Assembly: GCF_021054785.1 (NCBI RefSeq)
Contig: NZ_CP088239.1
Coordinates: 120,001 to 152,000 of the forward strand
Source of the DNA: Tannockella kyphosi
GTDB taxonomy: Bacteria > Bacillota_I > Bacilli_A > Erysipelotrichales > Coprobacillaceae
Length of the DNA stretch: 32,000 nt
Reading direction: 5' to 3'
Shown here: in pieces, positions 10,543 through 31,234 of the stretch
How the letters are laid out: every line of letters begins with the position of its first letter
Position numbering within the stretch: the first letter of the stretch is position 1
The notes under the pieces: generated by a model
Database searches by the model: none
The model's input: only the letters and a program-made list of their open reading frames with translations
Told to the model about the DNA's origin: nothing
Translations under genes and position numbers: made by a program

Positions 10543-10793
10543 TAATATAAAGTTATTAGCATCTTTAACTAGGATTAGTTTCTGTCTAAACAGGAGCCAA
10601 TCCTTTTTATGTTCCTAATAATTAGGACAATGCACACCTATCTTATCTTACTCATATAGTAAGTGAGGAGATAGGAAATGTTAGTATTGTTAATTAGCGG
10701 ACATGGTGCAGGCACTTGACCCTAGTTCTAAAATTATCTAGAAAACCTCTGTTTTATATAGAAAAAACAGTATTTTAACATACATAAAAACAG
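10543..10793 (+). repeat. cassette-boundary repeat R1 (full length: terminator hairpin, leader, 13-codon mini-ORF, conserved right half)
   Basis: The left half aligns with 31088-31234 (amidase upstream region and first codons). It carries hairpin GGATTAGTTTCTGT/ACAGGAGCCAATCC plus T-run (10572-10610), palindrome CCTAATAATTAGG (10614-10626) and mini-ORF ATG 10678 to TGA 10719 (MLVLLISGHGAGT). The right half TGCAGGCACTTGACCCTAGTTCTAAAATTATCTAGAAAACC... is shared with R2-R5. Confidence 0.9.
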
Positions 10794-10934
10794 TCTGTTT
10801 TATAGGATTTATATGAATGAAAAAAATATTTGCTATGAAGGCTATGAAGTATAGGGTATCTTAGCTGTAGATGATAATATCTTTGAATATATGTCATTGA
10901 TTACCTTAAAAATTATAAAATAAATATTTTTAAT

Positions 10935-10972
10935 AAACTAGACAAGAGGTGTCGTGTTTACCTTGATATACT
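10935..10972 (+). promoter_or_regulatory. palindromic operator plus extended -10 promoter (copy B)
   Basis: AAACTAGACA-N5-TGTCGTGTTT (10935-10959), then 7 nt later TATACT (10967-10972) with TG (TGaTATACT). Paralogous to 8797-8834. Confidence 0.5.
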
Positions 10973-11357
10973 GTATTTATAGAATTTAATGAATCTCTTA
11001 CATAATATTAAATTAAAAGCTTCATTTTGAGTCTTGCAGTAAGCTCATCGTCAGGCTAATTGTGATAAGTTAAGAAAGCCTTTAAATTACTTGTCAAGAA
11101 AGGCGTGTAATAAAAAATAGAAAGTAGTAATGTAAATTGACGAATGGGTCAGTGTCTATTTTTCATATAAACAAAAAATGCCAAAAATTAACCTAATCTT
11201 TGAGATGGGGATCAGCCAAATTATATATAAATTTCAATATTGTATTGATTAGATTAAAGTGTATGGATTTATCAAAAATTGTTGGTATGCTTACAAAGCA
11301 TGTTCAATATCATTGGTTAATGAAACACTTTATACTTAATGGAAGGAAACTTAAATA

Positions 11358-12119
11358 ATGAAAACAAAAATGATATTTTTTATTCTTTTGTTTGGGTTGT
11401 TGATATCGAACATTAGTATGTTACCGACAAATGCTCGTTGTTTCGATAGTGACTTTGTATTTGATGAAGAATATACAGTAACAGATGCACTATACGATTA
11501 TCAAAGTGGGGATTTACAACCTAGATATAATACAATTAGTAAAGAAGATATTGAGATAGGAATTAGTGGTTTACATAATCTAAATACTTCGAGTAGTTCA
11601 CGTATAGGCGGGTATACCTGGAAAATGATAAGAATGTCTACTCATTCTAGCTACGGTATTCTTAGAGGTAATTGTTTTAAAAAAGTGGAAGCGGGTGTAA
11701 CAACTTCAAAGTCTGTTAATGCATCTTTTTCTATTAGTGGAAAAATAAAGGGAGTTGAATTAACTGGATCTTTCAACTTCTCGACGTCATTTACCTATAA
11801 TGGTCCCAATGGAACAGAATCAGTTGGACACAAAAAAGCAACTCATAGATTATATTCTAGTATTGCTTATGGTAAAATTATGAAGTATGACTATGTTTAC
11901 AAGGATAAGTATACTGGCCATATAGCTAAAACAAAAACAGAATATTATATTACAAATCAATCAGTTCAAAAGTACAGCAATTTAGTTTATATTAATCCAA
12001 CAGATCTTAGTTTAATAGTGAGAAGTAGTGGAAGTAGTAACATAGAAAGTCATAAAAGTGAAGACAGTTTTACAAGCAAAATTAATTCAACATCTCCAGC
12101 CAAGTATATTGACTTTTAA
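11358..12119 (+). CDS. secreted beta-rich protein, unknown function (253 aa)
   Basis: GGAAGGA SD. Signal peptide MKTKMIFFILLFGLLISNISMLPTNA. The mature part is S/T/G/N-rich with an alternating polar/hydrophobic stretch SVNASFSISGKIKGVELTGSFNFSTSFTY. Confidence 0.7.
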   Translation: MKTKMIFFILLFGLLISNISMLPTNARCFDSDFVFDEEYTVTDALYDYQSGDLQPRYNTISKEDIEIGISGLHNLNTSSSSRIGGYTWKMIRMSTHSSYGILRGNCFKKVEAGVTTSKSVNASFSISGKIKGVELTGSFNFSTSFTYNGPNGTESVGHKKATHRLYSSIAYGKIMKYDYVYKDKYTGHIAKTKTEYYITNQSVQKYSNLVYINPTDLSLIVRSSGSSNIESHKSEDSFTSKINSTSPAKYIDF

Positions 12120-12353
12120 ATGAAAAGAATAGATTTTTATTTTGTTACTTCACTTATTTCATTTATTCTGTGCTTGGGTTTCACAAATAATATAATTACT
12201 AGTATTTCAGGATATTTTTACTTTTTGATTAATGAACCAGACATTTTCATGTTACTATCAGCAGTATTTTTATTCTTCGCTGTAGCCGGGTTATTTAAAA
12301 TTATTGTTGATAAAAGAAAATATGTTTCAAAAAAAACAAATAACAATAACTAA
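12120..12353 (+). CDS. small two-TM membrane protein (77 aa)
   Basis: The ATG immediately follows the TAA of the upstream gene (TAAATG). Two hydrophobic helices and a basic C-terminal tail. Confidence 0.55.
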   Translation: MKRIDFYFVTSLISFILCLGFTNNIITSISGYFYFLINEPDIFMLLSAVFLFFAVAGLFKIIVDKRKYVSKKTNNNN

Positions 12354-12908
12354 TCAATTGTGAGACTGTAGAAATAAAGTTTACACTTCCTAAGTGTGCC
12401 AGGCATGGTATACATCTAAGTGGTGAAAGTCCACCGTGGGGGAATAGTCGCCAACCACTAGTCGAAGTCAAGGGTGTCCATCGTGAGGCGGAATCTGAAG
12501 GAAGAATTAGACAAAACTCTGGTCTTAGGAACACGAACTATATCAGGCAGGAGATAAGAGACAAGTGTGCTTAACAACACAAAATCTAACAGACTATGAA
12601 GTACTTATCTAATGTAAATATGGAAGATATATGGAGGGAAAGATGTATAGCCTTACCCTGGGAGGTCTCACAAGCGAGAAAGTAGTAACAACGAATTGTG
12701 AGAAGTCAGCCGAGGTCGTAGTAGTGAGGAAGTACCTGTAATGGGTATGGAGCAAAGGACTGAACAGATTTATCAGTTAAAGAACTGTCAAATTGCACCG
12801 GTATGTGTAACTCGAGGACAAGAGTGAAACTAGAATAGTGAGTAAACAAGAACGGAGGAAAGCTATAAGTCAACATACAGGAAACGAAAGGAAGGGAAGT
12901 AACGAAAT

Positions 12909-13596
12909 ATGGAAACAGAAAGAAATGAATTACTTAATCAACTGCTTAGTGAAGAAAATATGATAGAAGCATATAAGCAAGTCAAACGAAATAGAGGAGC
13001 TAGTGGAATAGATGGTATGGAAGTAACTGAGTTAAAGGAATACCTAGAAGAACACGGCGAAGAAATTAAAGAAGAGATAAGGACAAGGAGATATAAACCT
13101 AGTCCGGTAAGAAGGGTAGAAATACCAAAAGAGAATGGTGGAGTAAGATTACTTGGAATACCAACAGTAAAAGATAGAATGGTACAACAAATGATAGTGC
13201 AAGTATTAACACCAATCTATGAACCGATATTTAGTGAACATAGCTATGGGTTCAGACCGGGTAGAAACTGTGAAATGGCAATCATAAAAGTATTAGAGCA
13301 CATGAATGAAGGATTGCATTGGATAGTAGATATTGACTTAGAGAAATTCTTTGATAATGTTCACCATGATAAACTAATTCGACTAGTGAGTCAACAGGTA
13401 AAAGATGGTGATGTAATATCCCTAATTAGAAAATTCCTAAGAAGTGGAATCATGATTGATGACGAATATAAAGAATCAACAATCGGAACGCCACAGGGCG
13501 GAAATCTTAGTCCATTATTATCAAATATTATGCTTGATGTGTTGGATAAGGAATTAGAGGCAAGAGGACTTAATTTCGTAAGATATGCAGATGATG
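12909..13596 (+). CDS. group II intron 1 reverse transcriptase/maturase, 5' part (interrupted after the YADD motif)
   Basis: RT motifs GIPTVKDRMVQQ, YGFRPGRN, DIDLEKFFDNVHHD, GTPQGGNLSPLLSNIML, VRYADD. The listed tail GAPRKCA* (to 13619) is read-through into the inserted intron. Confidence 0.85.
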
Positions 13597-15463
13597 GTGC
13601 GCCACGAAAGTGTGCGTGAGTAACAAGAATTACTCAAGTATAACTAAGCTATACAAATGATGGTGGAAGACCCACCGAAATCGCCATGCAGGTGGAGGTT
13701 TCAAACTACCTTAAGGTGCTGTAGACAAAAGCTATGGTATTGAGCGTTAAGGAAAAGGCAGTGTAAAACTGTCAAGTATGTGTTATGGAGATGAGAAACC
13801 AAGCGAATCACTGATGAAAACATCGAAAGCGTATAGATTCCATCAAAACCAGGGGGTTGTCGTTAACCTGGGATAAGTGTAGAGGAAACCTGTTTACTGA
13901 CTACACGGTGGGCGGTGTAAAGGTGACATGAACATAACATAGGCGTTTGTATGGAACGTGGGAACCCACGGGCTGATGATAAGGGAGTACTACAAGTGGA
14001 AGAACCATAAGTAGAGAGTACCAATGCAGTCATGGGGACAGATTGAATTGTAGTAGTGAAGAAGCTTCTGTAATGGAAGTGGAGCGAAGGGTTCAAGTCA
14101 TTTAGTTTTGAGAATGAGTCAACTTTGAAAGGAGGAGGAACTTATGCAAGAAACCAAACCGTTTAATATTTCAAAACAAGCATTTGTGAAAGCATTTGAA
14201 CTAGTGAAAGCAAACAGAGGAACATATGGGATAGATAATATAACTATTGAAATGTTCGAAGCAGACTACAAGAATAACATGTATAAGCTTTGGAATAGAA
14301 TGTCATCAGGAACATATTTCCCAAAACCAGTAAAAGCAGTGGATATACCAAAGAAAAGTGGTGGGACAAGAACACTTGGAATACCAACAGTGGAAGATAG
14401 GATAGCACAAATGGTTGTAAAGTTATACTTCGAACCAAATGTAGAGAAAATCTTCTATGAAAATTCATATGGGTATCGACCAAATAAGTCTGCAATACAA
14501 GCTGTAGGGGTAACTAGGGAAAGGTGTTGGAGAAGAGACTGGGTATTAGAATTTGATATCAAAGGACTGTTTGACAACATAAGACATGACTATCTAATGG
14601 AAATGGTAGCAAGACATACCAAAGATGAATGGATAAAACTATACATACAAAGATGGCTTACAACACCATTCCAAAAAGAAGATGGAACAAAAATAGAAAG
14701 AAGATCTGGAACACCACAGGGTGGGGTAATCAGTCCAGTACTAGCGAATCTATTTTTGCACTATACTTTTGATGAGTATATGACAAAACAATTTCCTAAT
14801 ATTCCATGGGTGAGATATGCAGACGATGGAGTAACGCATTGTGTATCACTTAAACAAGCGCAGTACCTATTAAAGAAACTAGAAGAAAGATTTCAACTAC
14901 TAGGACTAGAATTAAACCTAGAGAAAACGAAAATAGTATATTGTAAAGATGATGACAGGAAAGAAGAGTATCCTAACGTATCATTTGATTTTCTAGGATA
15001 TACATTTCGAGCTAGAGGGAGTAAGAACAAGTATGGAAAATATTTTGTAAACTTCCTACCAGCTATAAGTGATAAAGCGAAGAAAGCAATTCGCAAAGAA
15101 GTAAGAAGTTGGAAAATACAATTTAAAGTAGATAAAAGTTTAGAAGATATAGCAAATATGTTCAATAAGAAAATCCAAGGTTGGATTAATTATTATGGAC
15201 ATTTCTATAAATCTGAAATGTACGATGTATTGAGATATATTAATAGACGTTTAATTTACTGGGTGCGAAGAAAGTACAAAAGGCGAAACTCAAACAGAAG
15301 AGCTGAAAGATGGTTAGGTGGTGTGGCAAGAAGAGACACCAGACTATTTGCACACTGGAAACTAGGAATATTACCGGCGATAAATGATGGGAGCCGTATG
15401 AGCTGAGAGGTTCACGTACGGTTCTGAGAGAGACTTAGGGGGAGGTTCCCTAGGTCTACTCAC
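13597..15463 (+). mobile_element. group II intron 2 (inner intron, inserted in the YADD codons of the intron 1 RT gene); junctions uncertain by 1 nt
   Basis: It starts GTGCGCCACGAAAGTGTGCG at 13597, directly after GAT GAT G of YADD. Domain V is GAGCCGTATGAG...CACGTACGGTTC (15395-15428) and overlaps the IEP stop. A domain VI-like helix follows and the intron ends ...CTACTCAC before TTGCAAATATTGGTAGG, which resumes the outer RT frame (LQILVGS). Confidence 0.8.
14144..15406 (+). CDS. group II intron 2 reverse transcriptase/maturase (420 aa, no obvious endonuclease domain)
   Basis: GGAGGAGG SD. RT motifs GIPTVEDRIAQ, YGYRPNKS, FDIKGLFDNIRHD, GTPQGGVISPVLANLFL, VRYADDGVTHC. Maturase X motif QGWINYYGHFY. 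The ORF ends inside domain V. Confidence 0.9.
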   Translation: MQETKPFNISKQAFVKAFELVKANRGTYGIDNITIEMFEADYKNNMYKLWNRMSSGTYFPKPVKAVDIPKKSGGTRTLGIPTVEDRIAQMVVKLYFEPNVEKIFYENSYGYRPNKSAIQAVGVTRERCWRRDWVLEFDIKGLFDNIRHDYLMEMVARHTKDEWIKLYIQRWLTTPFQKEDGTKIERRSGTPQGGVISPVLANLFLHYTFDEYMTKQFPNIPWVRYADDGVTHCVSLKQAQYLLKKLEERFQLLGLELNLEKTKIVYCKDDDRKEEYPNVSFDFLGYTFRARGSKNKYGKYFVNFLPAISDKAKKAIRKEVRSWKIQFKVDKSLEDIANMFNKKIQGWINYYGHFYKSEMYDVLRYINRRLIYWVRRKYKRRNSNRRAERWLGGVARRDTRLFAHWKLGILPAINDGSRMS

Positions 15464-16066
15464 TTGCAAATATTGGTAGGAAGTCAAAAAGCAGCAAATA
15501 GAGTAATAGAGAATGTGAGTAGGTACATAGAAAAGAAACTAGGATTAAAAGTAAATATGACAAAAAGCAAAGTCAACAAACCAGAGGGTACAAAATACCT
15601 AGGGTTTGGATTTTACTATGATAAACTTCAAAAGACCTATAAAGCGAAACCACATAAACTTTCTGTAGAAAAACTGAAAAGAAAACTGAAGCAACTTACA
15701 AGCCGGAATTGGGGAGTGAGCATGGACTACAGACTACTAAAGATAAAGCAATTGATAGTAGGATGGGTCAACTACTTTAGAATAGCGAGTTTTAAGAAAG
15801 TGTGCAAACAAATAGATGCACATACACGGTTTAGACTTAGAATGTGCATATGGAAACGATGGAAAAGAATAGGTACAAAATACAGAGCACTAATAAAACT
15901 AGGAGTAAACAAATATAAAGCATGGGAATGGGCGAATAGCAGAAAAGCATACGCACGAGTTGCCATGTCATATATCATGTGTAGAACGGTAACGAACGAT
16001 AGACTAAAGAAAAGAGGTCTAGTATCACTACTAGACCAGTATCAGTTAAAACATATTTTAGTATAA
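15464..16066 (+). CDS. group II intron 1 reverse transcriptase/maturase, 3' part (thumb/maturase X domain)
   Basis: LQILVGSQKAANRVIENVSRYIEKKLGLKVNMTKSKV continues the consensus that follows YADD in intron RTs. Maturase motif VGWVNYFRIA. It is in frame with 12909..13595/6 if 1868 nt are removed. Confidence 0.8.
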   Translation: MQILVGSQKAANRVIENVSRYIEKKLGLKVNMTKSKVNKPEGTKYLGFGFYYDKLQKTYKAKPHKLSVEKLKRKLKQLTSRNWGVSMDYRLLKIKQLIVGWVNYFRIASFKKVCKQIDAHTRFRLRMCIWKRWKRIGTKYRALIKLGVNKYKAWEWANSRKAYARVAMSYIMCRTVTNDRLKKRGLVSLLDQYQLKHILV

Positions 16067-16278
16067 ATTTGAACCGCCGTACACCGAACGGTACATACGG
16101 TGGTGTGAGAGGACGATAAATAAATTAATTATTTATCTCCTACTCGATTATAACCAAGCGCTTATATGTCACTCTAAAAGATAGTGGAGATTAAGGCGTT
16201 TAATTTGAAGTTAATATTGGGTAAAATGAACCCACCCAATTTATTGGATAGCCAATAGATAAGAGGTGTGGTTTTTTT

Positions 16279-17910
16279 GGCGCTTTAAAATCTAGCGGGG
16301 TTTAGCGTAAAAAAGCTTTAAAAAAGAGCGGGGATAATTTTCCCCGTTCTATTTTTAAAGCCAATGCGAACATAAATTACAGTTTTTTTATTTTTTCGAT
16401 TTTTTGTAGGGGCCCCTTGGTGATCCTACTCTTTTTATTCTGGTAGAATGTTCACTTATAGTATATGTTTCGTATAAGTTTTGAGAGTAGATGAACTTAT
16501 TTCGGGCTCTTTGGAAATTACTTAGCCCATTCCCGTTGCTTATGATCTTTTTGATATAGTTGTTTTTCCCTTCTATAGGTCCATTGGATAATCTTCGATT
16601 ATCTATCCAGTGAAAAGAATTTAATATCTCTACTTTCCAATTTTTTAAAGTGCTTGCACAGTCTATCATTTCTTGGATGTTGGATAGAAGCATCTTCTTG
16701 ATTAAAGAATCTAATTCTTGTTCTTTCTTTTCTCTGGAAACAAATGTAGTTGAGTCATCATCTTGAAAAGCAATAAACTCTTCTTTTATCTTATATGCGT
16801 TATGTAAAACATCGCTAATATTTAATAGCTCTCTTAGTAGTGCTGTTTTTGTGGTTGTATACTTTAGTAAGTAATCATAGTATAAATTCTCAAAGTCTAG
16901 AGTGTCCTTATTTTTTAATAGTATGTAATATCTACTTTTGAGCAGTTTATATTCTAATTTGTCTTTATCTTCACTAAAGGAACGCATAATACGTTTTCTC
17001 ACACTGTTCAAAGAATCAGTTACTTTTTTTGTTGCATGGAACGGATCAATAGAAATAACTGCATCGGGAAAGAAAATATGTGCTATATCAGCATAATTTT
17101 GATACATATCAATGATAATATATTTTACTTTCTCTCTTTCTTTTAAAGGAATACTAAAAAAATAGTTGGTTAAGTCTTCGTTCCATCTAGATTCTACTAT
17201 ATCAATAATATACTTTTTACGAAAATCCATGATCATAAAAGCGTATTTTTTTTCAGTATGTCGGTTGAAATAAAATTCATCCCAACAGAGTATATCGGTT
17301 AATTGTTTTCTAGGTATTTGAACATGTTTGTCAAAAATATCAACAACTGTACCAACAGAAACATGATACTTAGAAGCAATACTAGAATAGGTAGCTGTAT
17401 AAGGCTTCAAGTCATTTAATATATTAATGATAGTAGTAGGAGTTAGTGTTTTTCTACTGTTTCCAAAAGGATTAGGTTCAATAAAAGTTTTCTTACAGTG
17501 ATTGCATTTATAACGACGCTGACGATAGAATATAGTAGTGTCACAATGAATAATAACTTTATGTTTTAATTCTCTAGTTTTATAATCTTTTACAGTGCTT
17601 GTAATGGAACCACAGTGAGGACAGACTTGTTTTCTTTGTTTGAAAGTTACTAGGAAATCAGAATGATTTGATTGAACAACAGAATCAATGAATTGTATAT
17701 CTTGTGCTTTTAAATCTAAAAGATTAATGATAAAATCGTACATAGAATCTCCTTCCTTTTAATTTTGTTCGCAAACTAATTATAACAGGAGATTCTTTTT
17801 TTTGCCTAAAATCACCCCGCACTAGATTTAAAGCGCTAAATTTAAGTGAAAGAAAAGACCCCGACTTATATTTAAAGCCTAGGTCCTTCCCCGCGATAAT
17901 TTAATATACC
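16279..17910 (-). mobile_element. ISL3-family insertion sequence
   Basis: Terminal motif GGCGCTTTAAAATCTAGCGGGG (16279-16300) versus the reverse complement of 17889-17910 (GGTATATTAAATTATCGCGGGG). A better inner copy sits at 17815-17837, and each end carries three copies of a GCTTTAAA-N-CGGGG motif. Identical GTTTTTTT(G) abuts both ends (16271-16279 and 17911-17919), consistent with an 8-bp target duplication. Confidence 0.7.
16388..17743 (-). CDS. ISL3-family transposase (451 aa)
   Basis: N-terminal zinc-finger pairs CPHCGS...YKCNHCKK, a central DDE region (CWDEFYF..., IIDMYQNY) and C-terminal SNGPIEGKNNYIKKI, characteristic of ISL3 transposases. AGGAAGGAG SD. Confidence 0.85.
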   Translation of the reverse strand: MYDFIINLLDLKAQDIQFIDSVVQSNHSDFLVTFKQRKQVCPHCGSITSTVKDYKTRELKHKVIIHCDTTIFYRQRRYKCNHCKKTFIEPNPFGNSRKTLTPTTIINILNDLKPYTATYSSIASKYHVSVGTVVDIFDKHVQIPRKQLTDILCWDEFYFNRHTEKKYAFMIMDFRKKYIIDIVESRWNEDLTNYFFSIPLKEREKVKYIIIDMYQNYADIAHIFFPDAVISIDPFHATKKVTDSLNSVRKRIMRSFSEDKDKLEYKLLKSRYYILLKNKDTLDFENLYYDYLLKYTTTKTALLRELLNISDVLHNAYKIKEEFIAFQDDDSTTFVSREKKEQELDSLIKKMLLSNIQEMIDCASTLKNWKVEILNSFHWIDNRRLSNGPIEGKNNYIKKIISNGNGLSNFQRARNKFIYSQNLYETYTISEHSTRIKRVGSPRGPYKKSKK

Positions 17911-18051
17911 GTTTTTTTGTGGTAAAACTAAACAAAGAATTTAAAGTAAAGTTATATAAATGTAAGCGTCAAATAATAAAGCACTAGTTGTCCTATAAGT
18001 AATAGGATATACTAGTGCTATCTTTTAAAACAGTACAAAAAAGTCATATCT

Positions 18052-22751: not shown

Positions 22752-22878
22752 ATTAGGACAATGCACATACACCTACCTTATCTTACTCATATAGCAAGTA
22801 AAAAAGTGAGAAATGTATTATTATCAATTAGTGACCATGGTGCTGTACTTAACCCTAGTATTAAAGTTATCAATAAAA
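22752..22878 (+). repeat. cassette-boundary repeat R3 (degenerate, lacks the terminator hairpin)
   Basis: ATTAGGACAATGCACATACACCTACCTTATCTTACTCATATAGCAAGT...GTGACCATGGTGCTGTACTTAACCCTAGTATTAAAGTTATC aligns with R6/R1 with many substitutions. Confidence 0.75.
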
Positions 22879-23158
22879 CCACCTTATCACGATAAACTAG
22901 AAAACATAAGATTTTTCATAAAACACATTTTACAAATACTTTATTGGGGATAGAAGCTGTATAAAATACAAGACTATACTCTCAGGAAAGAAATTATTTC
23001 TAGCATACAAAATGGGAAGAAGTAAACAAATTCCTCAATTTTCTACCTCGTGGAGGAGTACTGTTATCTGCTGTAGACATAAAATGAATTTGATGGATAT
23101 GAGAAAAAGAGAATAAGAAGTGTAGGCACCGGCAACAATGTAGATGTATAAGATAGGG

Positions 23159-23187
23159 TTGACAAAACTGTATTTCATAGTATTATT
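23159..23187 (+). promoter_or_regulatory. candidate promoter of the abiE-like operon
   Basis: TTGACA (23159-23164), 16-nt spacer, TATTAT (23181-23186). Confidence 0.4.
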
Positions 23188-23247
23188 TAAGTAAACACCC
23201 ACAAATATATAGCAAGTGTGGGCTTTTGGTGGAAGGTGGTGATACAT

Positions 23248-23790
23248 TTGTTAAAAACATATGAAGAATGTATAGCAGAGTTTGGTTCAAATCATTATCT
23301 TGATAAAGCAATTGAAAGTGGTCGGTTATTTAAAATAGAAAAAGGTATATATTCTGATGAGCAGTTACCTTCACAATTATCAGTTGTTGTTTTTAAGTAT
23401 CCAAATACTATAATGACCATGGAATCAGCTTTTTATTATCATGGATTGACTGATAGTATTCCAGATGAGTATGTGCTATGCACAGAAAGAAATGGAACTA
23501 AAATTAAGGATATAAGAATAAAGCAAATTTTTTGTCAGAAAAAATTATTTTTAATTGGAAAAAGCAAAATGGAATATCAGGGCATAAAATTAAACATTTA
23601 TGATAGAGAAAGAATGTTGATTGAGTTAGTCAGAAACAGAGAGAAACTACCCTATGATTATTATAAAGAAATCATCAGAAGCTATCGTGATAAGCTCTTT
23701 GATTTGGATATAGAAAAAATGCAAGAATACATTAGGCAGTTTCCAGGAAGCAAAACTATTAATGAAGTGATTGCTAGGGAGGTTTTTTAG
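23248..23790 (+). CDS. abiEi: AbiEi/AbiGi-family antitoxin-like protein (start uncertain: TTG 23248 or GTG 23218-23242)
   Basis: GAAGGTGG lies upstream of TTG 23248. Motifs GRLFKIEKGIYS and ESAFYYHGLTD are typical of the AbiEi_4/AbiGi N-terminal wHTH family. It overlaps the downstream AbiEii-like gene by 1 nt (TAGTG). Confidence 0.7.
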   Translation: MLKTYEECIAEFGSNHYLDKAIESGRLFKIEKGIYSDEQLPSQLSVVVFKYPNTIMTMESAFYYHGLTDSIPDEYVLCTERNGTKIKDIRIKQIFCQKKLFLIGKSKMEYQGIKLNIYDRERMLIELVRNREKLPYDYYKEIIRSYRDKLFDLDIEKMQEYIRQFPGSKTINEVIAREVF

Positions 23791-24593
23791 TGAATATAAA
23801 AGAGCACATAAATAGAATATACGCAGAAGGGTACAGTGAAGCAAACGCAGAGGCAAAACTCTGTCAGGATATTATTCTTGAGTTACTATCTAAAAGCTCC
23901 TTAAATCAAAATGTCACCATAAAGGGCGGTGTGGTAATGAGAAGTATATCGGATAATGTGAGAAGAGCAACACAGGATATAGATATTGACTTTATCCGAT
24001 ATTCGTTAGAAGAAAATTCAATTAGAACATTTTTGGATAAACTTAATGAGGCAGGGTCAGGAGAAATAACACTATCTATAGTAGGAAATATAGAAGAATT
24101 GAAACAACAGGATTATCACGGGAAACGAATCCATGTAGAAATAACAGATACTACAGGAATAAAATTAATGAGCAAAATAGATCTTGGAGTACATAAAAGG
24201 TTGGAAATCACACAAGAAGAATATTGCTTTGATATTGGTTTTAATAAAGAAGGAGCAAGTCTCTTAATCAATTCCAAAGAACAGATTCTAACAGAAAAAC
24301 TTCGTTCTATTTTAAGATTTGGAAGTTATTCTACAAGATATAAAGATATTTATGATATCTATTATCTACTAGGAAGCATTGATAATGAAAAGCTAGAACA
24401 TTGCTTGGATCTGTACATATACCAAGATAACAAAATGAGAGAAAACAATAAAGAGGATATTTATAAAAGAGTTTATGAGACATTAACAGATACTAGCTAT
24501 TTAAAAAAACTAAACACATCGAAAAGAAACTGGCTAGATGTATCAAATAACGAAGTTGTTTCAGGTATTATACAGGCATTGCAGGAACTGTGA
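23790..24593 (+). CDS. abiEii: AbiEii/AbiGii-family nucleotidyltransferase toxin (267 aa)
   Basis: IKGGVVMRSISDNVRRATQDIDIDF matches the GG...R.T.DID nucleotidyltransferase motif of AbiEii/AbiGii. GTG start coupled to the upstream gene. Confidence 0.75.
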   Translation: MNIKEHINRIYAEGYSEANAEAKLCQDIILELLSKSSLNQNVTIKGGVVMRSISDNVRRATQDIDIDFIRYSLEENSIRTFLDKLNEAGSGEITLSIVGNIEELKQQDYHGKRIHVEITDTTGIKLMSKIDLGVHKRLEITQEEYCFDIGFNKEGASLLINSKEQILTEKLRSILRFGSYSTRYKDIYDIYYLLGSIDNEKLEHCLDLYIYQDNKMRENNKEDIYKRVYETLTDTSYLKKLNTSKRNWLDVSNNEVVSGIIQALQEL

Positions 24594-24911
24594 TATGGTC
24601 CCTTTGATAGAAACATAAGATTATCCTTCAGAAGTATGTTGGGCCCTAGAAAAATATCATATGGGATATCTTGTACAAAGCAAAATAGGATGTTATTACT
24701 TTAACTCAAAAAAAGTCTATACTTGTAGTGGAATTATAATGTCCAGAAGTAGCAGTACTTGGAGTAGCATTTCATTCACTCAAATGGTTATTTGTAAGAA
24801 TAGCACCTTTTGCTTTAGTAGGTGCAATTATTGGTATAATTGTGACTTATAAAAAATATTCTTTTATAAGTAAGAATTACTAACCATAGAAGAACTCAAC
24901 GAGTGGTGCAA

Positions 24912-25097
24912 AGTTAATTAGGATTAGTTTCTGTACAAACAGGAGCTAATCCTTTTATGTTCCTAACAATTAGGACAATGCACATACATCATTCTCATCT
25001 TCTTCATATAGTAAGTGAGGAGGTGAGAATATGAAATTATTGTTAATTAGCGGACATGGTGCATGTTCTTGACCCTAGTTCTAAAATTATCGATAAA
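24912..25097 (+). repeat. cassette-boundary repeat R4
   Basis: Hairpin GGATTAGTTTCTGT/ACAGGAGCTAATCC plus T-run (24921-24956), CCTAACAATTAGG (24962-24974), SD-sequestering hairpin, mini-ORF ATG 25031 (MKLLLISGHGACS*) and the right half TGCATGTTCTTGACCCTAGTTCTAAAATTATCGAT. Confidence 0.9.
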
Positions 25098-25206
25098 ATT
25101 TCATTTATGATTCACAATTAATTTTTAAGGACTTTTTAAAGAAATAATATAATAACTTTTGTATACCTAAAAGAAGGTAAATGTGATGTGATGGAGTGTA
25201 TGCCAC

Positions 25207-26688
25207 ATGGCAAGGGAAACAACAGAGATAATAAAAGGAAATTATTATTATGAAAGGAAATATAGTAGTATGAAAGAGGTAATGAGGGATGTAGATAAAG
25301 TTGATTTTACTAGTATGATAGAAAATAAAAAAATTGAATTTAAAGTAGAATTAAATAAAAACAAACCTATTGGATGGTTAAAAACAGTAGTAGGATATGC
25401 TAATGATAGAGGTGGAATTATATACATAGGTGTTAGTGATGAGGGGTATCCTAAAGGTTTTTATAGAAAAGAAACAGATGAAATTCAGTTATATATGGTG
25501 GATATGATGAAAAGAAGAATTGATCCTCCTATTGAATATGATATTGAACTAATAAAAATAAAGGAACGATTTATTTTAAAGTTGATAATAGAGGAAAGTA
25601 AGATAAACGTAGTTAGTTATGTTGATAGAAAAAATGATATAACTGAAATTTATATTAGAAAACATGGCTCTACAACAAAGGCAAACTTATACGATATGGC
25701 TGAATTATTTCTACGTAAAAACCCTATTCCTTTTGATGAAAGAGTGAGTGAAGAGCAGTTTGAAAACCATACTTTTCATAGTTTAAATGAGAAATATAAG
25801 GAGCTTAATAATACAATGGTAGATTTAAGTCAAAAAAAGATGCAAGCACTAGGACTAGTTAATGAAGATGGCCTTTTAACAAATGCAGGATTACTATTTG
25901 TTGATAAAAGAAAAGAAGAATTCCCACTTATTCATATGAGAAAATGGCCTGGATTTGATAAGGGGAGTGATGAAGTGATTGATAGAAAAGAATTTAGAGG
26001 GAATCTTATTGATCAATTAAATAATGCAACACTGTTTATAAGAAATAACATAAAGACAGGATTTGTAAAGTTGCCAATAGGTAGGGTAGATAAAGAATCA
26101 TATCCAATGAGGGCAGTAGTAGAAGCATTATGTAATGCTATAGCTCATAGAGACTATCTAATTGGAGGTACACAGATAGATATTGATATTTATCAAGATA
26201 GGATGGTAATCACATCACCTGGAGATTTCTTACCAATAGGTAATGCTTCTGAATATGTTTTAGAAGAAATCCCATCAAAACGAAGAAATGAAACAGTCTG
26301 TAATATATTATCTGTATGTAAATTGATGGAAAAATCGGGGAGTGGATTTGAAAAGATTGTAAAGGAATATAATAAATTCGATAAAAAATATGCACCCAGG
26401 ATTATATCAAGGCAAGATTATTTTATGATTGTATTAAAGGATGTTTTGTATGATGATAAGATTATTTCAACTCAACACACAATATCGATAGAAGAAATTA
26501 AACTTCCAAAAAACCAAAAACTTATATATGATGTAATTTGCGAAAATCCTGGACTTAGGGTTCCTGATATATCTTCAAAGAGTGGACTTAAAAAATCCAG
26601 TGTGGATAATGCGATTAGAGAATTGAAAAACAAAGAAATTATCAAATTTGTTGGAACAAGCAAAGGTGGAGGATATTACAAATTATAA
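25207..26688 (+). CDS. AlbA_2 (Schlafen-like) / HATPase_c_4 / C-terminal wHTH protein (493 aa)
   Basis: The N-terminal segment IEFKVEL...GGIIYIGVSDEG is typical of AlbA_2/Schlafen divergent-AAA DNA/RNA-binding domains. The central segment AVVEALCNAIAHRDY...ITSPGDF...SKRRNETVCNILSVCKLMEKSGSGFEKI is typical of HATPase_c_4. The C-terminal segment IYDVICENPGLRVPDISSKSGLKKSSVDNAIRELKNKEII is wHTH-like. Confidence 0.75.
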   Translation: MARETTEIIKGNYYYERKYSSMKEVMRDVDKVDFTSMIENKKIEFKVELNKNKPIGWLKTVVGYANDRGGIIYIGVSDEGYPKGFYRKETDEIQLYMVDMMKRRIDPPIEYDIELIKIKERFILKLIIEESKINVVSYVDRKNDITEIYIRKHGSTTKANLYDMAELFLRKNPIPFDERVSEEQFENHTFHSLNEKYKELNNTMVDLSQKKMQALGLVNEDGLLTNAGLLFVDKRKEEFPLIHMRKWPGFDKGSDEVIDRKEFRGNLIDQLNNATLFIRNNIKTGFVKLPIGRVDKESYPMRAVVEALCNAIAHRDYLIGGTQIDIDIYQDRMVITSPGDFLPIGNASEYVLEEIPSKRRNETVCNILSVCKLMEKSGSGFEKIVKEYNKFDKKYAPRIISRQDYFMIVLKDVLYDDKIISTQHTISIEEIKLPKNQKLIYDVICENPGLRVPDISSKSGLKKSSVDNAIRELKNKEIIKFVGTSKGGGYYKL

Positions 26689-26713
26689 ATAATTGTTATA
26701 GCTTTAAAAAAGA

Positions 26714-26749
26714 AAACCACGGAGTAAACCACGGAGTAAACCACGGACT
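26714..26749. repeat. 3 x 12-nt tandem repeat AAACCACGGAGT
   Basis: AAACCACGGAGT AAACCACGGAGT AAACCACGGACT, 26 nt after the stop of 25207..26688. Confidence 0.9.
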
Positions 26750-27013
26750 AGATTACAGGTTAAAACACTTGGTAATAGTGATTGCGAAGGAATAGATAAA
26801 ATTAATATTCATAAAAACAACGCATTTTTCAATATCAGTAGAGGTTATTATATTCTAGGGTTTAACTAATTGTTAATGTGTTTAATGTTCACAACATAGT
26901 AATAGTCATTTTAATTAATATGATTTATGTACTGTAGTTACTTTTACTATCACTCTATTTAATGAAACTCTAAGAAAGTGCAGAGTTAAATAGATCGCAT
27001 ATTTATTGTTCAG

Positions 27014-27245
27014 TAATATAAAGTAAAAAGCATCTTTAATTAGGATTAGTTTCTGTACAAACAGGAGCTAATCCTTTTATCTTCCTAATAATTAGGACAA
27101 TGCACATACATCATTCTCATCTTCTTCATATAGTAAGTGAGGAGGTGAGAATATGAAATTATTGTTAATTAGCGGACATGGTGCGGGCACTTGACCATAG
27201 TTCTAAAATTATATAGAAAACCTTTGTTTTATATAGAAAAAACAG
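27014..27245 (+). repeat. cassette-boundary repeat R5 (full length)
   Basis: Near-identical to R4 and R1: hairpin 27043-27074 plus T-run, CCTAATAATTAGG 27084-27096, SD-sequestering hairpin 27113-27152, mini-ORF ATG 27153 (MKLLLISGHGAGT*) and the right half to ...TATATAGAAAAAACAG. Confidence 0.9.
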
Positions 27246-27380
27246 CATTTATATATATGTTAAAAAGCTAGATTTTCATCTTTTTCGTAAAAAAGAAAAA
27301 AACAGTTAAAGATAAGGGGAAGATACACTTACATAAGAATTAGTTTTACTATTTAATGGAATAATCATTTCGATGAACAT

Positions 27381-27410
27381 AAAAACAACCACCTTATAAT
27401 AGGTGGTTGT
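27381..27410 (-). terminator. intrinsic terminator of the minus-strand PadR operon
   Basis: Perfect 10-bp stem ACAACCACCT/AGGTGGTTGT with loop TATAAT. On the minus strand it is followed by TTTTTAT. Confidence 0.7.
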
Positions 27411-27531
27411 TCACGTCAAAGATTAGAGCAGTAAAGTTGTCGTCATAACTAATCTTCTTGTATGCAGTACGGCAGATGTAGAGAAGATAAGTCAGGAAAT
27501 CCATCAGTAAAAGGCACATCACAAAATAGTA

Positions 27532-27993
27532 TTAGTATAAATTACCATCTATACTACAATACAGTGATATTGATTTTGTAATACTGTCTGTTTCAAATCC
27601 TAAAAAGTATTCTTTTATTGTTGCTGTAGCTTTTGCACAATTACCAGATTTAGATGTATTCGTACTATATGTTTTCCATGCACTATCATAGATAGTGATA
27701 TTTAGTTTTGATGAACTGCAAGTCACAGATGTACCAACAAATGAAAACGTACCAGTAACACTAATAGACCATAGTGCTTCACCTGATGATGAACGATAGG
27801 TTGTAGTTTTTGTACCAGATACTGTATCCAAAGAAGAACGAGTTTGTGCAGTTGTTTGGTTAGAATAGTTGATAACTGTTTCATAATAACATCCAGTATC
27901 TAAGCACTGTTCTTCTAAAGCAAAGGTTGCTTTAGGTGATAATATAAAAGTAAGTAACAAGATAGAGATAAAAATTTTTATTGTTTTTTTCAT
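27532..27993 (-). CDS. secreted S/T-rich protein, unknown function (153 aa)
   Basis: AGGAG SD. Signal peptide MKKTIKIFISILLLTFILSPKATFA. The mature part is T/S-rich with several Cys. Confidence 0.65.
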   Translation of the reverse strand: MKKTIKIFISILLLTFILSPKATFALEEQCLDTGCYYETVINYSNQTTAQTRSSLDTVSGTKTTTYRSSSGEALWSISVTGTFSFVGTSVTCSSSKLNITIYDSAWKTYSTNTSKSGNCAKATATIKEYFLGFETDSITKSISLYCSIDGNLY

Positions 27994-28006
27994 AAGTAAT
28001 ACGCTC

Positions 28007-28384
28007 CTATTCGTAAGTTATAGATGAATCATCAAAATAAGATCCATGACTATCTTTTGCATCTTCACGGGCTAAACTTAAAACACCAAAAAAGATGATT
28101 GTATTAATGATTAAAAATAGAAATATAAGCTTTAGAGATTTTTGTTTGAATTTAGTATCTTTCATACGTGAATAAATACCTTGTGGTTCTAAGTCATCAT
28201 AAAATGATTCCACTATTTCTTTAGGGTTACCAAACCTAGAAGAATAGTAATCATAGTTTTCATTTTCTTCAGAATTTTCAGTAATAGATTTTGTGAATCT
28301 GTTAAAATATTCTATTTCTTCTTTCCCAAATGTAGGAAAAGCTTTTTTTATGTCTAATAAGTACGTATCTCTACTCATCACCAT
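28007..28384 (-). CDS. membrane-anchored protein, DUF1700-like partner of PadR (125 aa)
   Basis: AAGGAG SD. The N-terminal soluble helical region (LLDIKKAFPTFGKEEIEYFNRF) resembles DUF1700 proteins that commonly follow PadR genes. One TM helix (LIFLFLIINTIIFFGVLSLA). It overlaps the padR stop. Confidence 0.55.
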   Translation of the reverse strand: MVMSRDTYLLDIKKAFPTFGKEEIEYFNRFTKSITENSEENENYDYYSSRFGNPKEIVESFYDDLEPQGIYSRMKDTKFKQKSLKLIFLFLIINTIIFFGVLSLAREDAKDSHGSYFDDSSITYE

Positions 28385-28709
28385 GTTCTCCTTTTATATT
28401 TAATATTACTTGTATTTTATTTTCCCATTGATGATATTCTTCAATCATTGCTTCTAGATAAGGAATACCAGATTCTTCTAGATGATAATAAACACGTATC
28501 TTTCTATTTACTATTACTTCATTAGAAGATATATATCCTTTATCTAACATCTTATAAAGAGTAGGGTATAAAGAACCTTCTTTTATATCAATGATGCCAT
28601 CTGATAATTCGCGTATTTTAGTTGTAATTTCATAACCATAACAATCCTTGGTTGTTAAAATAACAAGTATTAACATCTCAAATTTAAAATAAATGTTCTT
28701 CTTAGCCAT
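28371..28709 (-). CDS. PadR-family transcriptional regulator (112 aa)
   Basis: wHTH motif ILVILTTKDCYGYEITTKI...GSLYPTLYKMLDKGYISS...RVYYHLEESG is typical of PadR. AAGGAG SD. Confidence 0.85.
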   Translation of the reverse strand: MAKKNIYFKFEMLILVILTTKDCYGYEITTKIRELSDGIIDIKEGSLYPTLYKMLDKGYISSNEVIVNRKIRVYYHLEESGIPYLEAMIEEYHQWENKIQVILNIKGEHGDE

Positions 28710-29228
28710 TTGGATCTCCTTTTCTAAATATAGTATAAATATATCAAATAGTAGCGTTTAAGTAAATACATTTAAAACTATGTATAATATTATTGACATA
28801 TTATTTGCATATAGAGTATAGTTTAAGTATGAGATATATCACATAATGTATTGTGCCGATTCTAGTTTGAACACAAAAGCTAGCAAACGGTCGAAAGGGG
28901 GAGTGTGTCTATAGAATATCTTTAACTTAGTATTCATAGTGATTTGTATGATAATTTTTGAAAACAGTGTTATTATTTACTGTAACTAAATTATTTATCT
29001 CAATGATTTTTGCTCAAAAGAATAATATGATATACATTGTTATTAAAATAGGGCCAAGTGGTTTGTGACGAGAATGCTAGGGGATTGAATAAGTATTAAA
29101 TGTACAAAATAAAACAAAGACAAAGGTTGACTTAATTGTGTGAGAAGTTAGTTAAACTTTATCAAAATACTGAAAGGAAAGTATGATCTGACACTAAGAA
29201 ACAAGTGCTTTTCATACAAGGTTATGGT

Positions 29229-29786
29229 ATGAAAAAGAAGAGAAGTATATGTTTAATTATTGCAATAGGTGCATGTATTATTCTAACATTACTTTTTTTG
29301 AAAAGAGAAAATATTTATGTTCAATTAGGCGGCTTACAATATCAATTTGAATCTATGAATTACTCTTTATCTCAAGAAAAAGTAGATGGGGAATATTCTT
29401 TTGATATTGATTTAGAAGACTTAGAATCAAATGAAAACAAAAAAATAGAAATAGATGATAATTGTTATATAGAAATAGCAAGTATTATACTAGAAAGTAA
29501 TGGTCAGTATGCTTTACATTTACAATCTCATGGAGAGTATGATTTTAATGGAGGATATTTCTATACAGCGAATGAATATTATACAGGAGATCAAAACAAT
29601 ATGATAACTGTAATCGGTGAGTTAGAATCTGATGGAGAAAGTTGGTACTCATCCTCTTATTTAGCTGTTAGTAATAAATATGGAGATAGTTTTAGTTATA
29701 GCATTGATGCAAGTAAAATAGATAGTAATCATGTAACGGTTACATTAAGTAATATAAATAAAGTAATATTGGAAAGGGAAAATTGA
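29229..29786 (+). CDS. N-terminally anchored extracytoplasmic protein (185 aa from ATG 29229)
   Basis: MKKKRSICLIIAIGACIILTLLF signal/anchor. The remainder is acidic and Y/S-rich. The listed GTG start at 29205 is less likely. Confidence 0.55.
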   Translation: MKKKRSICLIIAIGACIILTLLFLKRENIYVQLGGLQYQFESMNYSLSQEKVDGEYSFDIDLEDLESNENKKIEIDDNCYIEIASIILESNGQYALHLQSHGEYDFNGGYFYTANEYYTGDQNNMITVIGELESDGESWYSSSYLAVSNKYGDSFSYSIDASKIDSNHVTVTLSNINKVILEREN

Positions 29787-29788
29787 AA

Positions 29789-30538
29789 ATGAAAAAAATA
29801 AGAATAATGTTAATAACTACTTGTATGGGAATATTAAGTGTTGCAAATGTTTATGCAAGCGAAAAAACACTTTTTGATTATACAGCAAAAGAAATTGCAC
29901 AAATGCAAGATGAGGAATATTTAACTCTATATACAGACTATTATATTGAAGCAAAATCACAAAACAAAACAGAAGAAGATATTAAAATAGAATTACAAAA
30001 TGTAGGAATTGATTATTCCTGTGTTGATCTGGTTAATAATTCAAGGGCAGCATCTTTCAGTACAGATATCGACTTGAATATAACTTTATCTCGTAGAAGT
30101 GGTCAAACGTATACTTATGTGACGGGTGTTGCTACTTCTACGAAACTTCTCAGCTCTCCTTCAACAGAAGATATGCTTTCAATTGAATGGGAACCCTCTA
30201 AAGGAACTTATTATGGATATACTGAAACAAAAAATGCCACATTGAAAAATTATTCTAAAAAGAGCCAAGGTATATTAGTTTTTAATATACAGGATTCAAA
30301 TTTAGTGATTAGCGGTAGCTACGCACTATGCTCGGTAAAAGTTGTTTTCGATGACAATACTGATGTAGGTGATTTAGGATTAAATTATATACATACATTT
30401 ACTGATGCAGCACCCACTTTAACGATAGGTGGGAATGTATCCTTTACATCTGTAGGAGCACTAACTGGAGGTCTTAGTATAGGGTTAACAATCACAAATG
30501 TAAGTTGTGTTTGGGAAAGATCATATTTATATTCTTAA
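29789..30538 (+). CDS. secreted beta-rich protein (249 aa from ATG 29789)
   Basis: Signal peptide MKKIRIMLITTCMGILSVANVYA. The C-terminal region is S/T/G-rich with an alternating pattern (TLTIGGNVSFTSVGALTGGLSIGLTITNVS). It starts 2 nt after the upstream stop. Confidence 0.65.
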   Translation: MKKIRIMLITTCMGILSVANVYASEKTLFDYTAKEIAQMQDEEYLTLYTDYYIEAKSQNKTEEDIKIELQNVGIDYSCVDLVNNSRAASFSTDIDLNITLSRRSGQTYTYVTGVATSTKLLSSPSTEDMLSIEWEPSKGTYYGYTETKNATLKNYSKKSQGILVFNIQDSNLVISGSYALCSVKVVFDDNTDVGDLGLNYIHTFTDAAPTLTIGGNVSFTSVGALTGGLSIGLTITNVSCVWERSYLYS

Positions 30539-30631
30539 AAGATGATATAACTTACTTATAAATAAAACTGTAAATAACTATAATATTCAAATAAGTCAGT
30601 ATGTTATATACGAGTATAATCTAAATTTTAG

Positions 30632-30657
30632 ACTAGAATTTTATTCTAGTTTTTTTT
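30632..30657 (+). terminator. intrinsic terminator
   Basis: ACTAGAAT, loop TTT, ATTCTAGT, followed by TTTTTTT. Confidence 0.7.
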
Positions 30658-30724
30658 GATACTTTCTAGCTAGTAAGTTCTAAAAGTAAATGTATGACAT
30701 AGCATTATTTAGGAGGTAGTTAAT

Positions 30725-31030
30725 ATGGAAACAAAAAAGATACTTAAAGATATAGCAAAGAGATGTGACGACGATATCTCATTTAGCAGTAGTAGGACCT
30801 GTAAGAACAGGGAAGTCTACGTTTATAAAAAAGAACACGTCAAGGCAGTAATACCTTATATTGATGATCCTGATGCTAAGTTACATGCTATTGATGAATT
30901 ACCACAATCTGGTAAGGGAAAAATGATTATGACGGTAGAGCCTAAATTCATCCCTAATCAAGCAGTATCGATATTATTAGAAGATAATTTAAATGCTAAG
31001 GTGAGACTAGTAGATAGTGTTAGATTCTAA
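30725..31030 (+). pseudogene. spoIVA: 5' fragment of stage IV sporulation protein A gene (frameshifted across Walker A, truncated at about codon 100)
   Basis: AGGAGG SD. METKKILKDIAKRCDDDI and DELPQSGKGKMIMTVEPKFIPNQAVSILLEDNLNAKVRLVDSV match the B. subtilis SpoIVA N-terminus (recalled: MEKVDIFKDIAERTGGDIYLGVVGAVRTGKSTFIKKF...DELPQSAAGKTIMTTEPKFVPNQAMSV...IRLVDCVGY). The Walker A peptide VVGPVRTGKSTFIKK is encoded in a different frame at 30789-30833. The ORF stops at 31030, whereas full-length SpoIVA is about 490 aa. Confidence 0.8.
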
Positions 31031-31087
31031 GTCCAATTATAATAAGGTAAATAATTATTTGAATAAAAATATAATAAGCTAGTTAAC

Positions 31088-31234
31088 GTTAATTAGGATT
31101 AGTTTCTGTACAAACAGAAACTAACCCTTTTATGTTCCTAATAATTAGGACAATGCACATACACCTACCTTATCTTCCTCATATAGTAAGTGAGGAGGTG
31201 AGAATATGAAATTATTGTTAATTAGCGGACATGG
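31088..31234 (+). repeat. cassette-boundary repeat R6 = native upstream region and first codons of the amidase gene
   Basis: Perfect hairpin GGATTAGTTTCTGT/ACAGAAACTAACCC plus T-run (31096-31132), CCTAATAATTAGG (31137-31149), leader hairpin, SD GAGGAGG and ATG 31206. Homology with R1-R5 ends after GGACATGG (31234). Confidence 0.9.

Follow-up and report, generated by a model that had tools for sequence, protein, structure and literature searches.

Most of the defence hotspots described so far are defined by an integrase, by a tRNA gene or by core genes on both sides. In staphylococci, the composite and pseudo staphylococcal cassette chromosome (SCC) islands at rlmH (orfX) consist of tandem cassettes at one gene end, some of them without a recombinase, which carry defence cargo and are separated by direct repeats that duplicate the gene end. 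To this picture we add a locus from Tannockella kyphosi, found in a 32,000-nucleotide stretch of its chromosome (contig NZ_CP088239.1, positions 120,001–152,000 of the forward strand; hereafter the window). Here, a compact stack of about 20 kb precedes an amidase gene of the phage endolysin type; it comprises five modules lying head-to-tail, bounded by six copies of one repeat (R1–R6), and the boundaries copy the regulatory region and the first codons of the lysin. The stack is a recombination hotspot without a recombinase gene of its own. The SCC repeats are of 15–20 bp at a 3′ gene end, and ccr serine recombinases are encoded on at least one cassette; neither feature was found in this array.

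Tandem accretion of ICEs (integrative and conjugative elements) and IMEs (integrative and mobilizable elements) with integrase-less cis-mobilizable elements (CIMEs), which keep attL and attR, is an established process, and the CIMEs are mobilised by related ICEs or IMEs (PMC5704250). The array resembles the ICESt1/ICESt3-related islands at fda of Streptococcus thermophilus (PMC5704250) in its head-to-tail stacking at one gene end, with hybrid sites between the elements; as in CIMEs, the members lack integration and transfer genes and keep both flanking sites. It differs in that the target is a 5′ gene end (terminator, leader and 12 codons) rather than a 3′ end, that all five members are non-autonomous, measure 1.9–3.8 kb before invasion by insertion sequences (ISs) and have no known cognate integrase-bearing element, and that the repeats, of 110–290 bp, show homologous mosaicism. 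Sedentary chromosomal integrons (PMC12614218; bioRxiv 10.1101/2024.07.02.601719) likewise hold long, strain-variable arrays of small recombinase-less units between homogeneous repeats, with toxin–antitoxin (TA) and phage-defence cargo. An earlier note on this DNA had considered integron-like cassettes with an attC-like site, a comparison that fails in its particulars: the array has no intI, attI or Pc, and the repeat, which copies the 5′ end of a neighbouring gene, has neither the end-to-end R″-L″/L′-R′ symmetry nor the GTTRRRY core of attC (the boundary GTTAATT does not fit). Integron cassettes are, in addition, mostly single promoterless open reading frames (ORFs) in one orientation, whereas the modules here are multi-gene units with promoter-like sites of their own and genes in both orientations. 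In T4-type phages, finally, short terminator-bearing regulatory repeats flank non-essential genes as promoter early stem-loop (PeSL) cassettes, and recombination between these repeats yields insertions, deletions and replacements among close relatives, and can also yield mini-circles, with no dedicated enzyme (PMC2839356). The array shares the terminator-bearing repeats, but it is bacterial and chromosomal, its repeat has no good sigma-70 promoter and does not drive the cargo, and the repeat has a fixed breakpoint and takes in codons of one particular gene.

The six copies, recovered by a repeat search of the window, form one family and all lie on the + strand. Three diagnostic sub-motifs of 22–34 nt are each found three to five times at no more than 3 mismatches, and none of 100 shuffles matched, which excludes chance and bears out the six copies of one element described in the earlier note. 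R6 (31063–31234) continues into the true amidase ORF, whose ATG lies at 31206. Its left half (31063–31205) is, as had been proposed, the genuine amidase upstream region, with a terminator hairpin (31095–31128), the palindrome TCCTAATAATTAGGA (31136–31150) and a hairpin sequestering the Shine–Dalgarno (SD) sequence. R1 (10543–10831) is full-length by alignment and pairwise BLAST and consists of a terminator hairpin (10571–10604), the palindrome CCTAATAATTAGG, an SD region, a mini-ORF (MLVLLISGHGAGT, then a stop) and a right arm with a second weak hairpin. R5 (27014–27307) is also full-length, and mosaic; about 290 bp are common to R1 and R5. R4 (24910–25108) holds a terminator hairpin (24920–24953), the leader, the mini-ORF MKLLLISGHGACS with its stop and a short right arm. 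R2 (20486–20604) is partial, being reduced to the ATG, the mini-ORF MKLLLINEHGAGT with its stop and the right arm, without leader or terminator. The degenerate R3 (22752–22915) begins at ATTAGGACAATGCACA and has no R-type terminator hairpin, and its mini-ORF frame is destroyed by two 1-nt deletions. The truncated and most decayed copies, R2 and R3, thus lie in the middle of the array, and the copies nearest the gene are the most like its own leader. The copies of the earlier note stand with altered extents, R1 and R5 being longer (about 290 bp) and R6 beginning about 25 nt further left. The terminator hairpin that it assigned to the element is predicted in R4, R5 and R6 and fits the hairpin motif with 3 mismatches in R1, but is missing from R2 and R3.

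The leader is predicted to fold into the terminator, a small palindrome hairpin and an SD-sequestering hairpin (z = −4.9), the last of which agrees with the SD hairpin noted before. It matched no known RNA family in Rfam, and the promoter scan gave no promoter-like site of at least 9 of 12 within any copy. The repeat junctions are real and not an assembly artefact, because independent public contigs reproduce them: the junction of the left flank with R1 recurs at 100% in Logan contig L001, which is 100% identical to the left flank and breaks off inside R1, and R3–AbiE–R4 recurs at 99.8% in contig L173. As a separate observation, each full repeat carries the 8-mer TAATTAGS at three places, all on the + strand: ahead of the terminator, within the palindrome and 8 nt short of the breakpoint. 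Of the 11 occurrences of this 8-mer in the window, 10 fall within repeats; the spans that bear it are 10619–10698, 24915–25051, 27037–27173 and 31090–31226. It may be a protein-binding motif.

The repeats have a common breakpoint. When R1, R2, R4 and R5 are compared with R6, every alignment stops at 31234, the last G of GGACATGG, and that of R3 stops at 31239. Beyond 31234, R1–R5 share another, non-amidase sequence of 45–110 bp (TGCAGGCACTTGACCCTAGTTCTAAAATTATC...), the right arm, in agreement with the different conserved right half noted earlier. The amidase-like frame in R1, R2, R4 and R5 comprises 13 codons (MKLLLISGHGAGT or close variants) and then a stop; a related repeat copy in contig L169 likewise stops at codon 14, with TAA in place of TGA. 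Specifically, the GGT GCx that follows CATGG reads G-A in R1, R2, R4 and R5 and G-A-G in R1, R2 and R5. Across 25 homologous lysins the consensus at this point is MKILLISGHGAGD; L009, a related metagenome-assembled genome (MAG), has an orthologue with MKVLLISGHGAGDSGAVGNGYKEADLTIEVV, and the resident gene has GHGSGD. The GGTGC.. continuation in the repeats fits the GHGAG of typical lysins. Since the bases past CATGG match other lysin alleles, the lysin-derived part reaches to about codon 11–12, and it stems from an allele slightly different from that of the resident gene. The earlier statement that homology stops exactly after GGACATGG is therefore right for the ends of the alignments but not for the lysin-like codons, which run to about codon 12; a crossover core at GGACATGG itself is not upheld, the lysin-derived part extending past it and the junction lacking inverted repeats. 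Because the stump retains codons for MKLLLISGHGAG, with which members of this lysin family typically begin, the repeats derive from the lysin 5′ end and not the reverse. We also considered the right arm as the C-terminal coding region of the amidase and rejected this, since the known C-terminus is not encoded there. In Xer-dependent modules (IMEX or pdif modules), each unit is flanked by dif-like sites of 28 bp with an 11-6-11 layout. Compared by eye with the dif site of B. subtilis, the right arm shows only a loose resemblance, and no conserved 11-6-11 site was seen across all copies or on the amidase side of R6.

The two halves of the repeats have different relationships. Over the 146 nt of the left half, from the terminator to CATGG, R4 and R5 are 98.6% identical to each other and 93.2% each to R6, and R1 is 85.7% identical to R4, R5 and R6. 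Over the first 45 nt of the right arm, by contrast with the left half, R1 and R5 are 91.1% identical, R1 and R2 87.0%, and R4 and R5 72.3%; divergence of the right arm among copies reaches 30–45%. At individual sites, R5 resembles R1 at the extreme left, R4 between the terminator and codon 3, and R1 once more in the right arm; the second of these switches falls in 25 identical bases, TTGTTAATTAGCGGACATGGTGC, which contain the junction. This switch, together with the incongruent halves, indicates that left and right halves with separate histories meet at the junction.

Next, the array was compared between strains, a comparison proposed in the earlier note, on contigs that are short and end in or near repeats. 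A protein search with AbiEii, encoded in module 3, returned variants of 97% and 99% on short contigs from seven sequencing runs, and the AbiE block (23010–24781) is 98.6–99.8% identical in seven contigs from other runs. In contig L169, the left flank is 96.7% identical over its gene and 95.2% over the intergenic DNA, and identity drops sharply at 10543, reaching 86%, 67%, 90% and 70% across successive parts of the first repeat. Between this repeat and the AbiE block, which is 98.6% identical, lie about 125 bp of unrelated DNA, so that AbiE stands directly after the first repeat and modules 1 and 2 do not lie between them. This 98.6% is not strong evidence for horizontal transfer, because the flank itself is 95–97% identical. 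Contigs L172 and L174 carry an AbiE module 99.5% identical to that of the window, and the repeat that follows is of the R6 type from its left edge: the final 62 nt contain 5 differences, compared with 7 over the 2154 nt before them (Fisher p ~1e-5). L173, which comes from the same run as the contig with the 100% flank, ends exactly at the first variant base (a T/G branch), which suggests two coexisting variants in one sample. Since L169, L172 and L174 differ from the window, the locus is not invariant, and the differences begin at or inside repeats. They map to the repeats as in PeSL cassettes, but the AbiE block's own ends lie about 120–130 bp outside them.

The gene at the end of the stack is itself of phage type. 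Homologues of the amidase are plentiful in viral contigs, usually a few kb from the contig end, and in L009, a MAG from a related member of the Coprobacillaceae, the orthologue has a tail-fibre-like gene and a holin before it and host genes directly next to it; we therefore regard the amidase as a phage-type endolysin rather than a housekeeping amidase. The gene (31206–32000, + strand, running off the window) encodes an Amidase_3 domain and two CW_7 repeats (Pfam), and its product is 100% identical to the T. kyphosi protein P0001, whose full length is 283 aa. The window holds this endolysin-type amidase without holin or tail genes, and a PHROGs search of the window genes upstream of it gave no phage lysis or structural match.

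As an explanation of these features we lean, at somewhat less than an even chance, towards a site-specific recombinase, acting in trans, as the maker of the founding insertions, with the repeats reshuffled afterwards by homologous recombination. The region as a whole would be a strain-variable island to which non-autonomous modules were added serially, always at the 5′ end of a phage-type endolysin gene that is itself an orphan, a view that we hold just as tentatively. Each module would arrive as a circle and enter by a single Campbell-type crossover at the endolysin 5′ end. As each circle would bring its own copy of the upstream terminator, the leader and the first ~12 codons, the endolysin would be intact after insertion, and the previous 5′ copy would be stranded as a 13-codon stump fused to the right arm shared by the modules. 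Repetition would stack the modules, with a circle of left arm, junction and right arm recombining once each time. The site-specific recombinase would act in trans, encoded at another genomic locus or on a helper element, in the manner in which related ICEs or IMEs mobilise CIMEs. Host homologous recombination over the repeats of about 150–290 bp would then delete, convert and reshuffle modules, and the TA-type modules (ToxN/AbiQ-like and AbiE) probably help to prevent collapse of the array, by analogy to the TA cassettes of chromosomal integrons.

Several of the observations fit this proposal. The independent assortment of the halves at the junction fits a crossover there; the breakpoint is fixed, and the R5 switch, lying within 25 nt around it, is as expected if one module supplied the left arm and the following module the right. 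The gradient of identity to R6 (93% for R4 and R5, 86% for R1, with R2 and R3 truncated) would be consistent with serial addition next to the gene. That homologous recombination also acts is indicated by the mosaic left halves, the R6-like allele after AbiE and the fast-diverging first repeat of L169.

Other findings count against the site-specific part of this scheme. No tyrosine or serine recombinase domain is found in any ORF of at least 95 aa of the 32-kb window, as the earlier note had stated of recombinase genes, and the only mobility genes in the array are secondary ISL3, IS66 and group II introns. Nor did any relative of the modules that carries an integrase come to light. An exact-pattern scan for the junction CATGGTGCNKGYWCTTRACNNTAGTWYTAAAR found it absent from genome, metagenome and viral collections, and among 160 homologous amidase loci (80 genomic, 80 viral) none repeats the leader and first codons upstream; the phenomenon is therefore not general to this lysin family. 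A dyad scan revealed no symmetry around the junction, the terminator hairpins and a 7-1-7 palindrome being all that it found. It could also be that the right arm represents the 3′ flank of the amidase itself, and the mosaic left halves point to homologous exchange between copies. Comparison of strains adds that AbiE modules 99.5% identical to each other are followed by repeats that differ right from the left edge, that the first repeat of L169 diverges far more (67–90%) than the adjoining flank (95–97%), that some 120 bp separate the repeat from the start of the AbiE block in common with L169, and that four contigs end about 130 bp before the next repeat. Of the site-specific tandem accretion put forward in the earlier note, the repeat-bounded, strain-variable array stands, while the mosaic halves, the absence of a dyad and the AbiE block ending off the repeats do not agree with it. 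Overall, the observation is confirmed, and the site-specific or integron-like mechanism is partly supported.

Searches for further occurrences gave little. The leader pattern had no match in metagenomes, and the 34 matches of a 15-mer leader pattern in viral contigs were all attributed to chance and discarded. BLAST of the repeat and of the amidase start found no match in phage records, BLAST of the array against plasmids matched the group II intron only, and the fetched loci, searched with an nhmmer profile built from the right arm, gave no additional copies. In L035, an unrelated goat-caecum Clostridia MAG, the non-coding region upstream of an amidase homologue recurs before several other genes; these intergenic repeats (1933–2130, 3879–3955, 9476–9691 and 9905–10000) are PeSL-like, with no coding sequence copied.

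The alternative that survives best, although we think it rather unlikely, dispenses with a recombinase altogether and takes the repeat as a portable homology block like that of PeSL cassettes. RecA-type recombination would excise module circles and re-insert them at any copy or at the lysin leader, modules would be exchanged between strains after transformation or transduction, and the first junction would be one accidental deletion or insertion, propagated thereafter. Homology of 150–290 bp is ample for RecA-type recombination. The mosaic left halves and the near homogenisation of R4 and R5 at 98.6% are what such exchange would leave, as are the R6-like allele that L172 and L174 carry from the left edge of the repeat and a first repeat in L169 more diverged than its flank; the window without a recombinase gene and the junction without a dyad fit as well, and both shuffling by PeSLs and mini-circles are documented (PMC2839356). 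This alternative nevertheless needs an ad hoc origin for the first junction, and a copy of the target's 5′ end that restores the gene is a classic mark of integrase-driven elements. Moreover, R5 switches at the junction and not elsewhere along the ~290 bp common to R1 and R5, direct repeats so long should be lost fast unless selected, and the shared AbiE block ends outside the repeats.

In a further reading, which we consider unlikely, the array would be a self-sufficient cassette platform, an 'integron without integrase', anchored on the endolysin 5′ end. Modules with a decoy leader and first codons would circulate among Tannockella strains in fish guts, and insertion and excision would be carried out by host recombination or by a new kind of trans-acting enzyme. 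The same process may act at spoIVA, of which two 5′ copies are cut at the same codon, as described below.

Still more doubtful is duplication in place. Here the repeat would be a lysin gene that had lost its interior, everything between codon 13 and the 3′ flank, and the array would have grown by unequal crossing-over, perhaps from tandem remnants of prophage right ends, the cargo being swapped later by illegitimate recombination. The endolysin-type amidase, which in L009 closes a prophage behind the tail fibre and holin, suits such an origin, and the right arm, like a 3′ flank, opens with lysin-like codons and closes with a weak hairpin of terminator type; the AbiE block boundaries away from the repeats and the 5′ fragment of spoIVA, a sign that the region collects gene fragments, point the same way. 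Yet right arms that differ by up to 30–45% are too divergent for recent local duplication, their relationships are incongruent with those of the left halves, they do not encode the amidase C-terminus, and PHROGs detects no phage structural or holin genes in the window. That R is a MITE-like or REP-like element (miniature inverted-repeat transposable element or repetitive extragenic palindrome) scattered genome-wide, one copy of which lies beside the amidase by chance, is very improbable: R is indeed short, structured and non-coding but for the 13-codon stump, but it holds conserved lysin N-terminal codons, R6 continues into the intact gene, the six co-oriented copies stand exactly at module boundaries, the dyad scan found neither terminal inverted repeats nor target duplications at the repeats, and motif scans and the nhmmer right-arm profile found no other copy in the first 10.5 kb of the window.

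The modules between the repeats hold 1–6 genes each. Consistent with the self-contained units of the earlier note, they are discrete and repeat-bounded, and the promoter scan placed strong promoter-like sites inside the modules and not in the repeats. Base composition was tried as a means of setting modules apart from flanks and dropped, the GC content being uniform (0.25–0.32) except in the introns. Defence or TA systems are recognised in two modules by Pfam and PADLOC matches, one of the ToxN/AbiQ type and one of the AbiEi/AbiEii type, so that the defence or TA character previously ascribed to several cassettes is borne out for these two.

Module 1 (10832–20485, + strand) encodes a signal-peptide protein of 253 aa (11358–12119) and a protein of 77 aa with two transmembrane segments (12120–12353). 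Later insertions followed, namely nested group II introns (~12395–16140), an ISL3 element (~16279–17836) and an IS66 element (17962–20367). The introns were matched by Rfam domains, and Pfam reports RVT_1/GIIM, DDE_Tnp_ISL3 and DDE_Tnp_IS66/TnpB_IS66; the ends of the ISL3, IS66 and intron insertions were read from the sequence. One group II intron sits within the reverse transcriptase (RT) ORF of another, the halves of the outer RT lying at 12909–13619 and 15464–16066 and the inner RT at 14144–15406. The ISL3-family element has the inverted ends GGCGCTTTAAAATCTAGCGGGG and adjoins the IS66-family element, which carries tnpA/B/C and an 8-bp duplication, ATATAAAT. The latter splits a 54-aa ORF whose TGA overlaps the ATG of the R2 stump. 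In addition, a 39-nt promoter-like sequence (TAAACTAGACA...TATACT) at 8796–8834, upstream of a gene for a 181-aa membrane protein, appears again at 74% identity inside module 1 (10934–10972), before the secreted-protein gene.

Module 2 (20605–22751, + strand) resembles a type III TA locus. Two ToxI-like tandem repeats of 36 nt (20828–20895) and a terminator precede an ORF (20968–22707, + strand; 579–588 aa) that joins a ToxN/AbiQ domain to a C-terminal HipA_C-like or PDC-M03A-like part (Pfam ToxN_toxin 4.6e-18 and HipA_C 6e-4; PADLOC AbiQ 5.7e-21 and PDC-M03A 1.6e-13). Both domains of the 'ToxN-HipA locus' named in the earlier note are thus present, but in a single fused ORF, and judged by these domain matches the fusion looks unusual for a type III TA toxin. 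Module 3 (22916–24909, + strand) encodes AbiEi (23218–23790; PADLOC 1e-74) and AbiEii (23790–24593; 1.2e-117) behind its own promoter-like site (23159–23186), which scored 11 of 12.

Module 4 (25109–27013, + strand) encodes one protein of 493 aa (25207–26688) with SLFN_AlbA_2, HATPase_c_4 and winged helix-turn-helix domains (Pfam 3.4e-20, 1.1e-19 and 4.4e-5, respectively). It is a putative Schlafen/AlbA_2-type protein, and its PADLOC matches are weak, to pAgo-associated models. A short tandem repeat, AAACCACGGAGT, in about 3 copies (26717–26750) comes right after this gene and overlaps a predicted terminator-like site on the minus strand. Module 5 (27308–31062) has genes in both orientations. 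On the minus strand it encodes a 153-aa signal-peptide protein, a DUF6120 protein (Pfam 1.3e-10) and a PadR protein (3.1e-18), and on the plus strand two signal-peptide proteins of 193 and 251 aa, followed by a double-frameshifted 5′ fragment of spoIVA (30725–31030; 101 aa).

This fragment is the final ORF ahead of R6 and reproduces the initial ~99 codons of spoIVA (TIGR02836 1.2e-22, PF09547 6e-25); its Walker A motif is apparently read out of frame and then back in (SFSSSRTCKNREVYVYKKEHV vs YLAVVGPVRTGKSTFIKKFME). In a second short SpoIVA copy of T. kyphosi, P0122 (127 aa), Walker A is intact. The resemblance to SpoIVA ends in both copies after VRLVD(S/C)V, where relatives (L168) go on normally. 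The fragment may be another instance of gene 5′-end duplication, or an element could have interrupted spoIVA. No spoIVA remnants were found before the other repeats, and no sequence common to the spoIVA and amidase breakpoints was seen. Six contigs with a related intact spoIVA (L162–L167) all end at codon 99–100 (..VRLVDCV), near the T. kyphosi break, which could reflect strain polymorphism or an insertion site. Frameshifted variants of that spoIVA gene are also present in the protein set (P0126, P0128 and P0140).

Upstream, the array adjoins 10.5 kb that encode ABC ATPase/FtsX-type and membrane proteins. The left flank proper (9818–10542, + strand) consists of the gene for a 213-aa multi-pass membrane protein and 83 bp of intergenic DNA. 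Further left (635–7737) lie three paralogues of about 590–690 aa, separated by small unannotated ORFs; all three have an ABC ATPase domain and two also end in an FtsX-like permease part, and no phage signal was found there.

The host, a fish-gut bacterium, belongs to a little-studied gut Firmicute family (Erysipelotrichaceae/Coprobacillaceae). If the proposed mechanism is true, it would extend tandem accretion to 5′ gene ends and to fully non-autonomous arrays, and a gene-start stump joined to a shared arm would be a simple signature for finding hidden cassette arrays. The locus would also offer a natural system for asking whether short portable homology alone sustains the modular exchange of defence genes.

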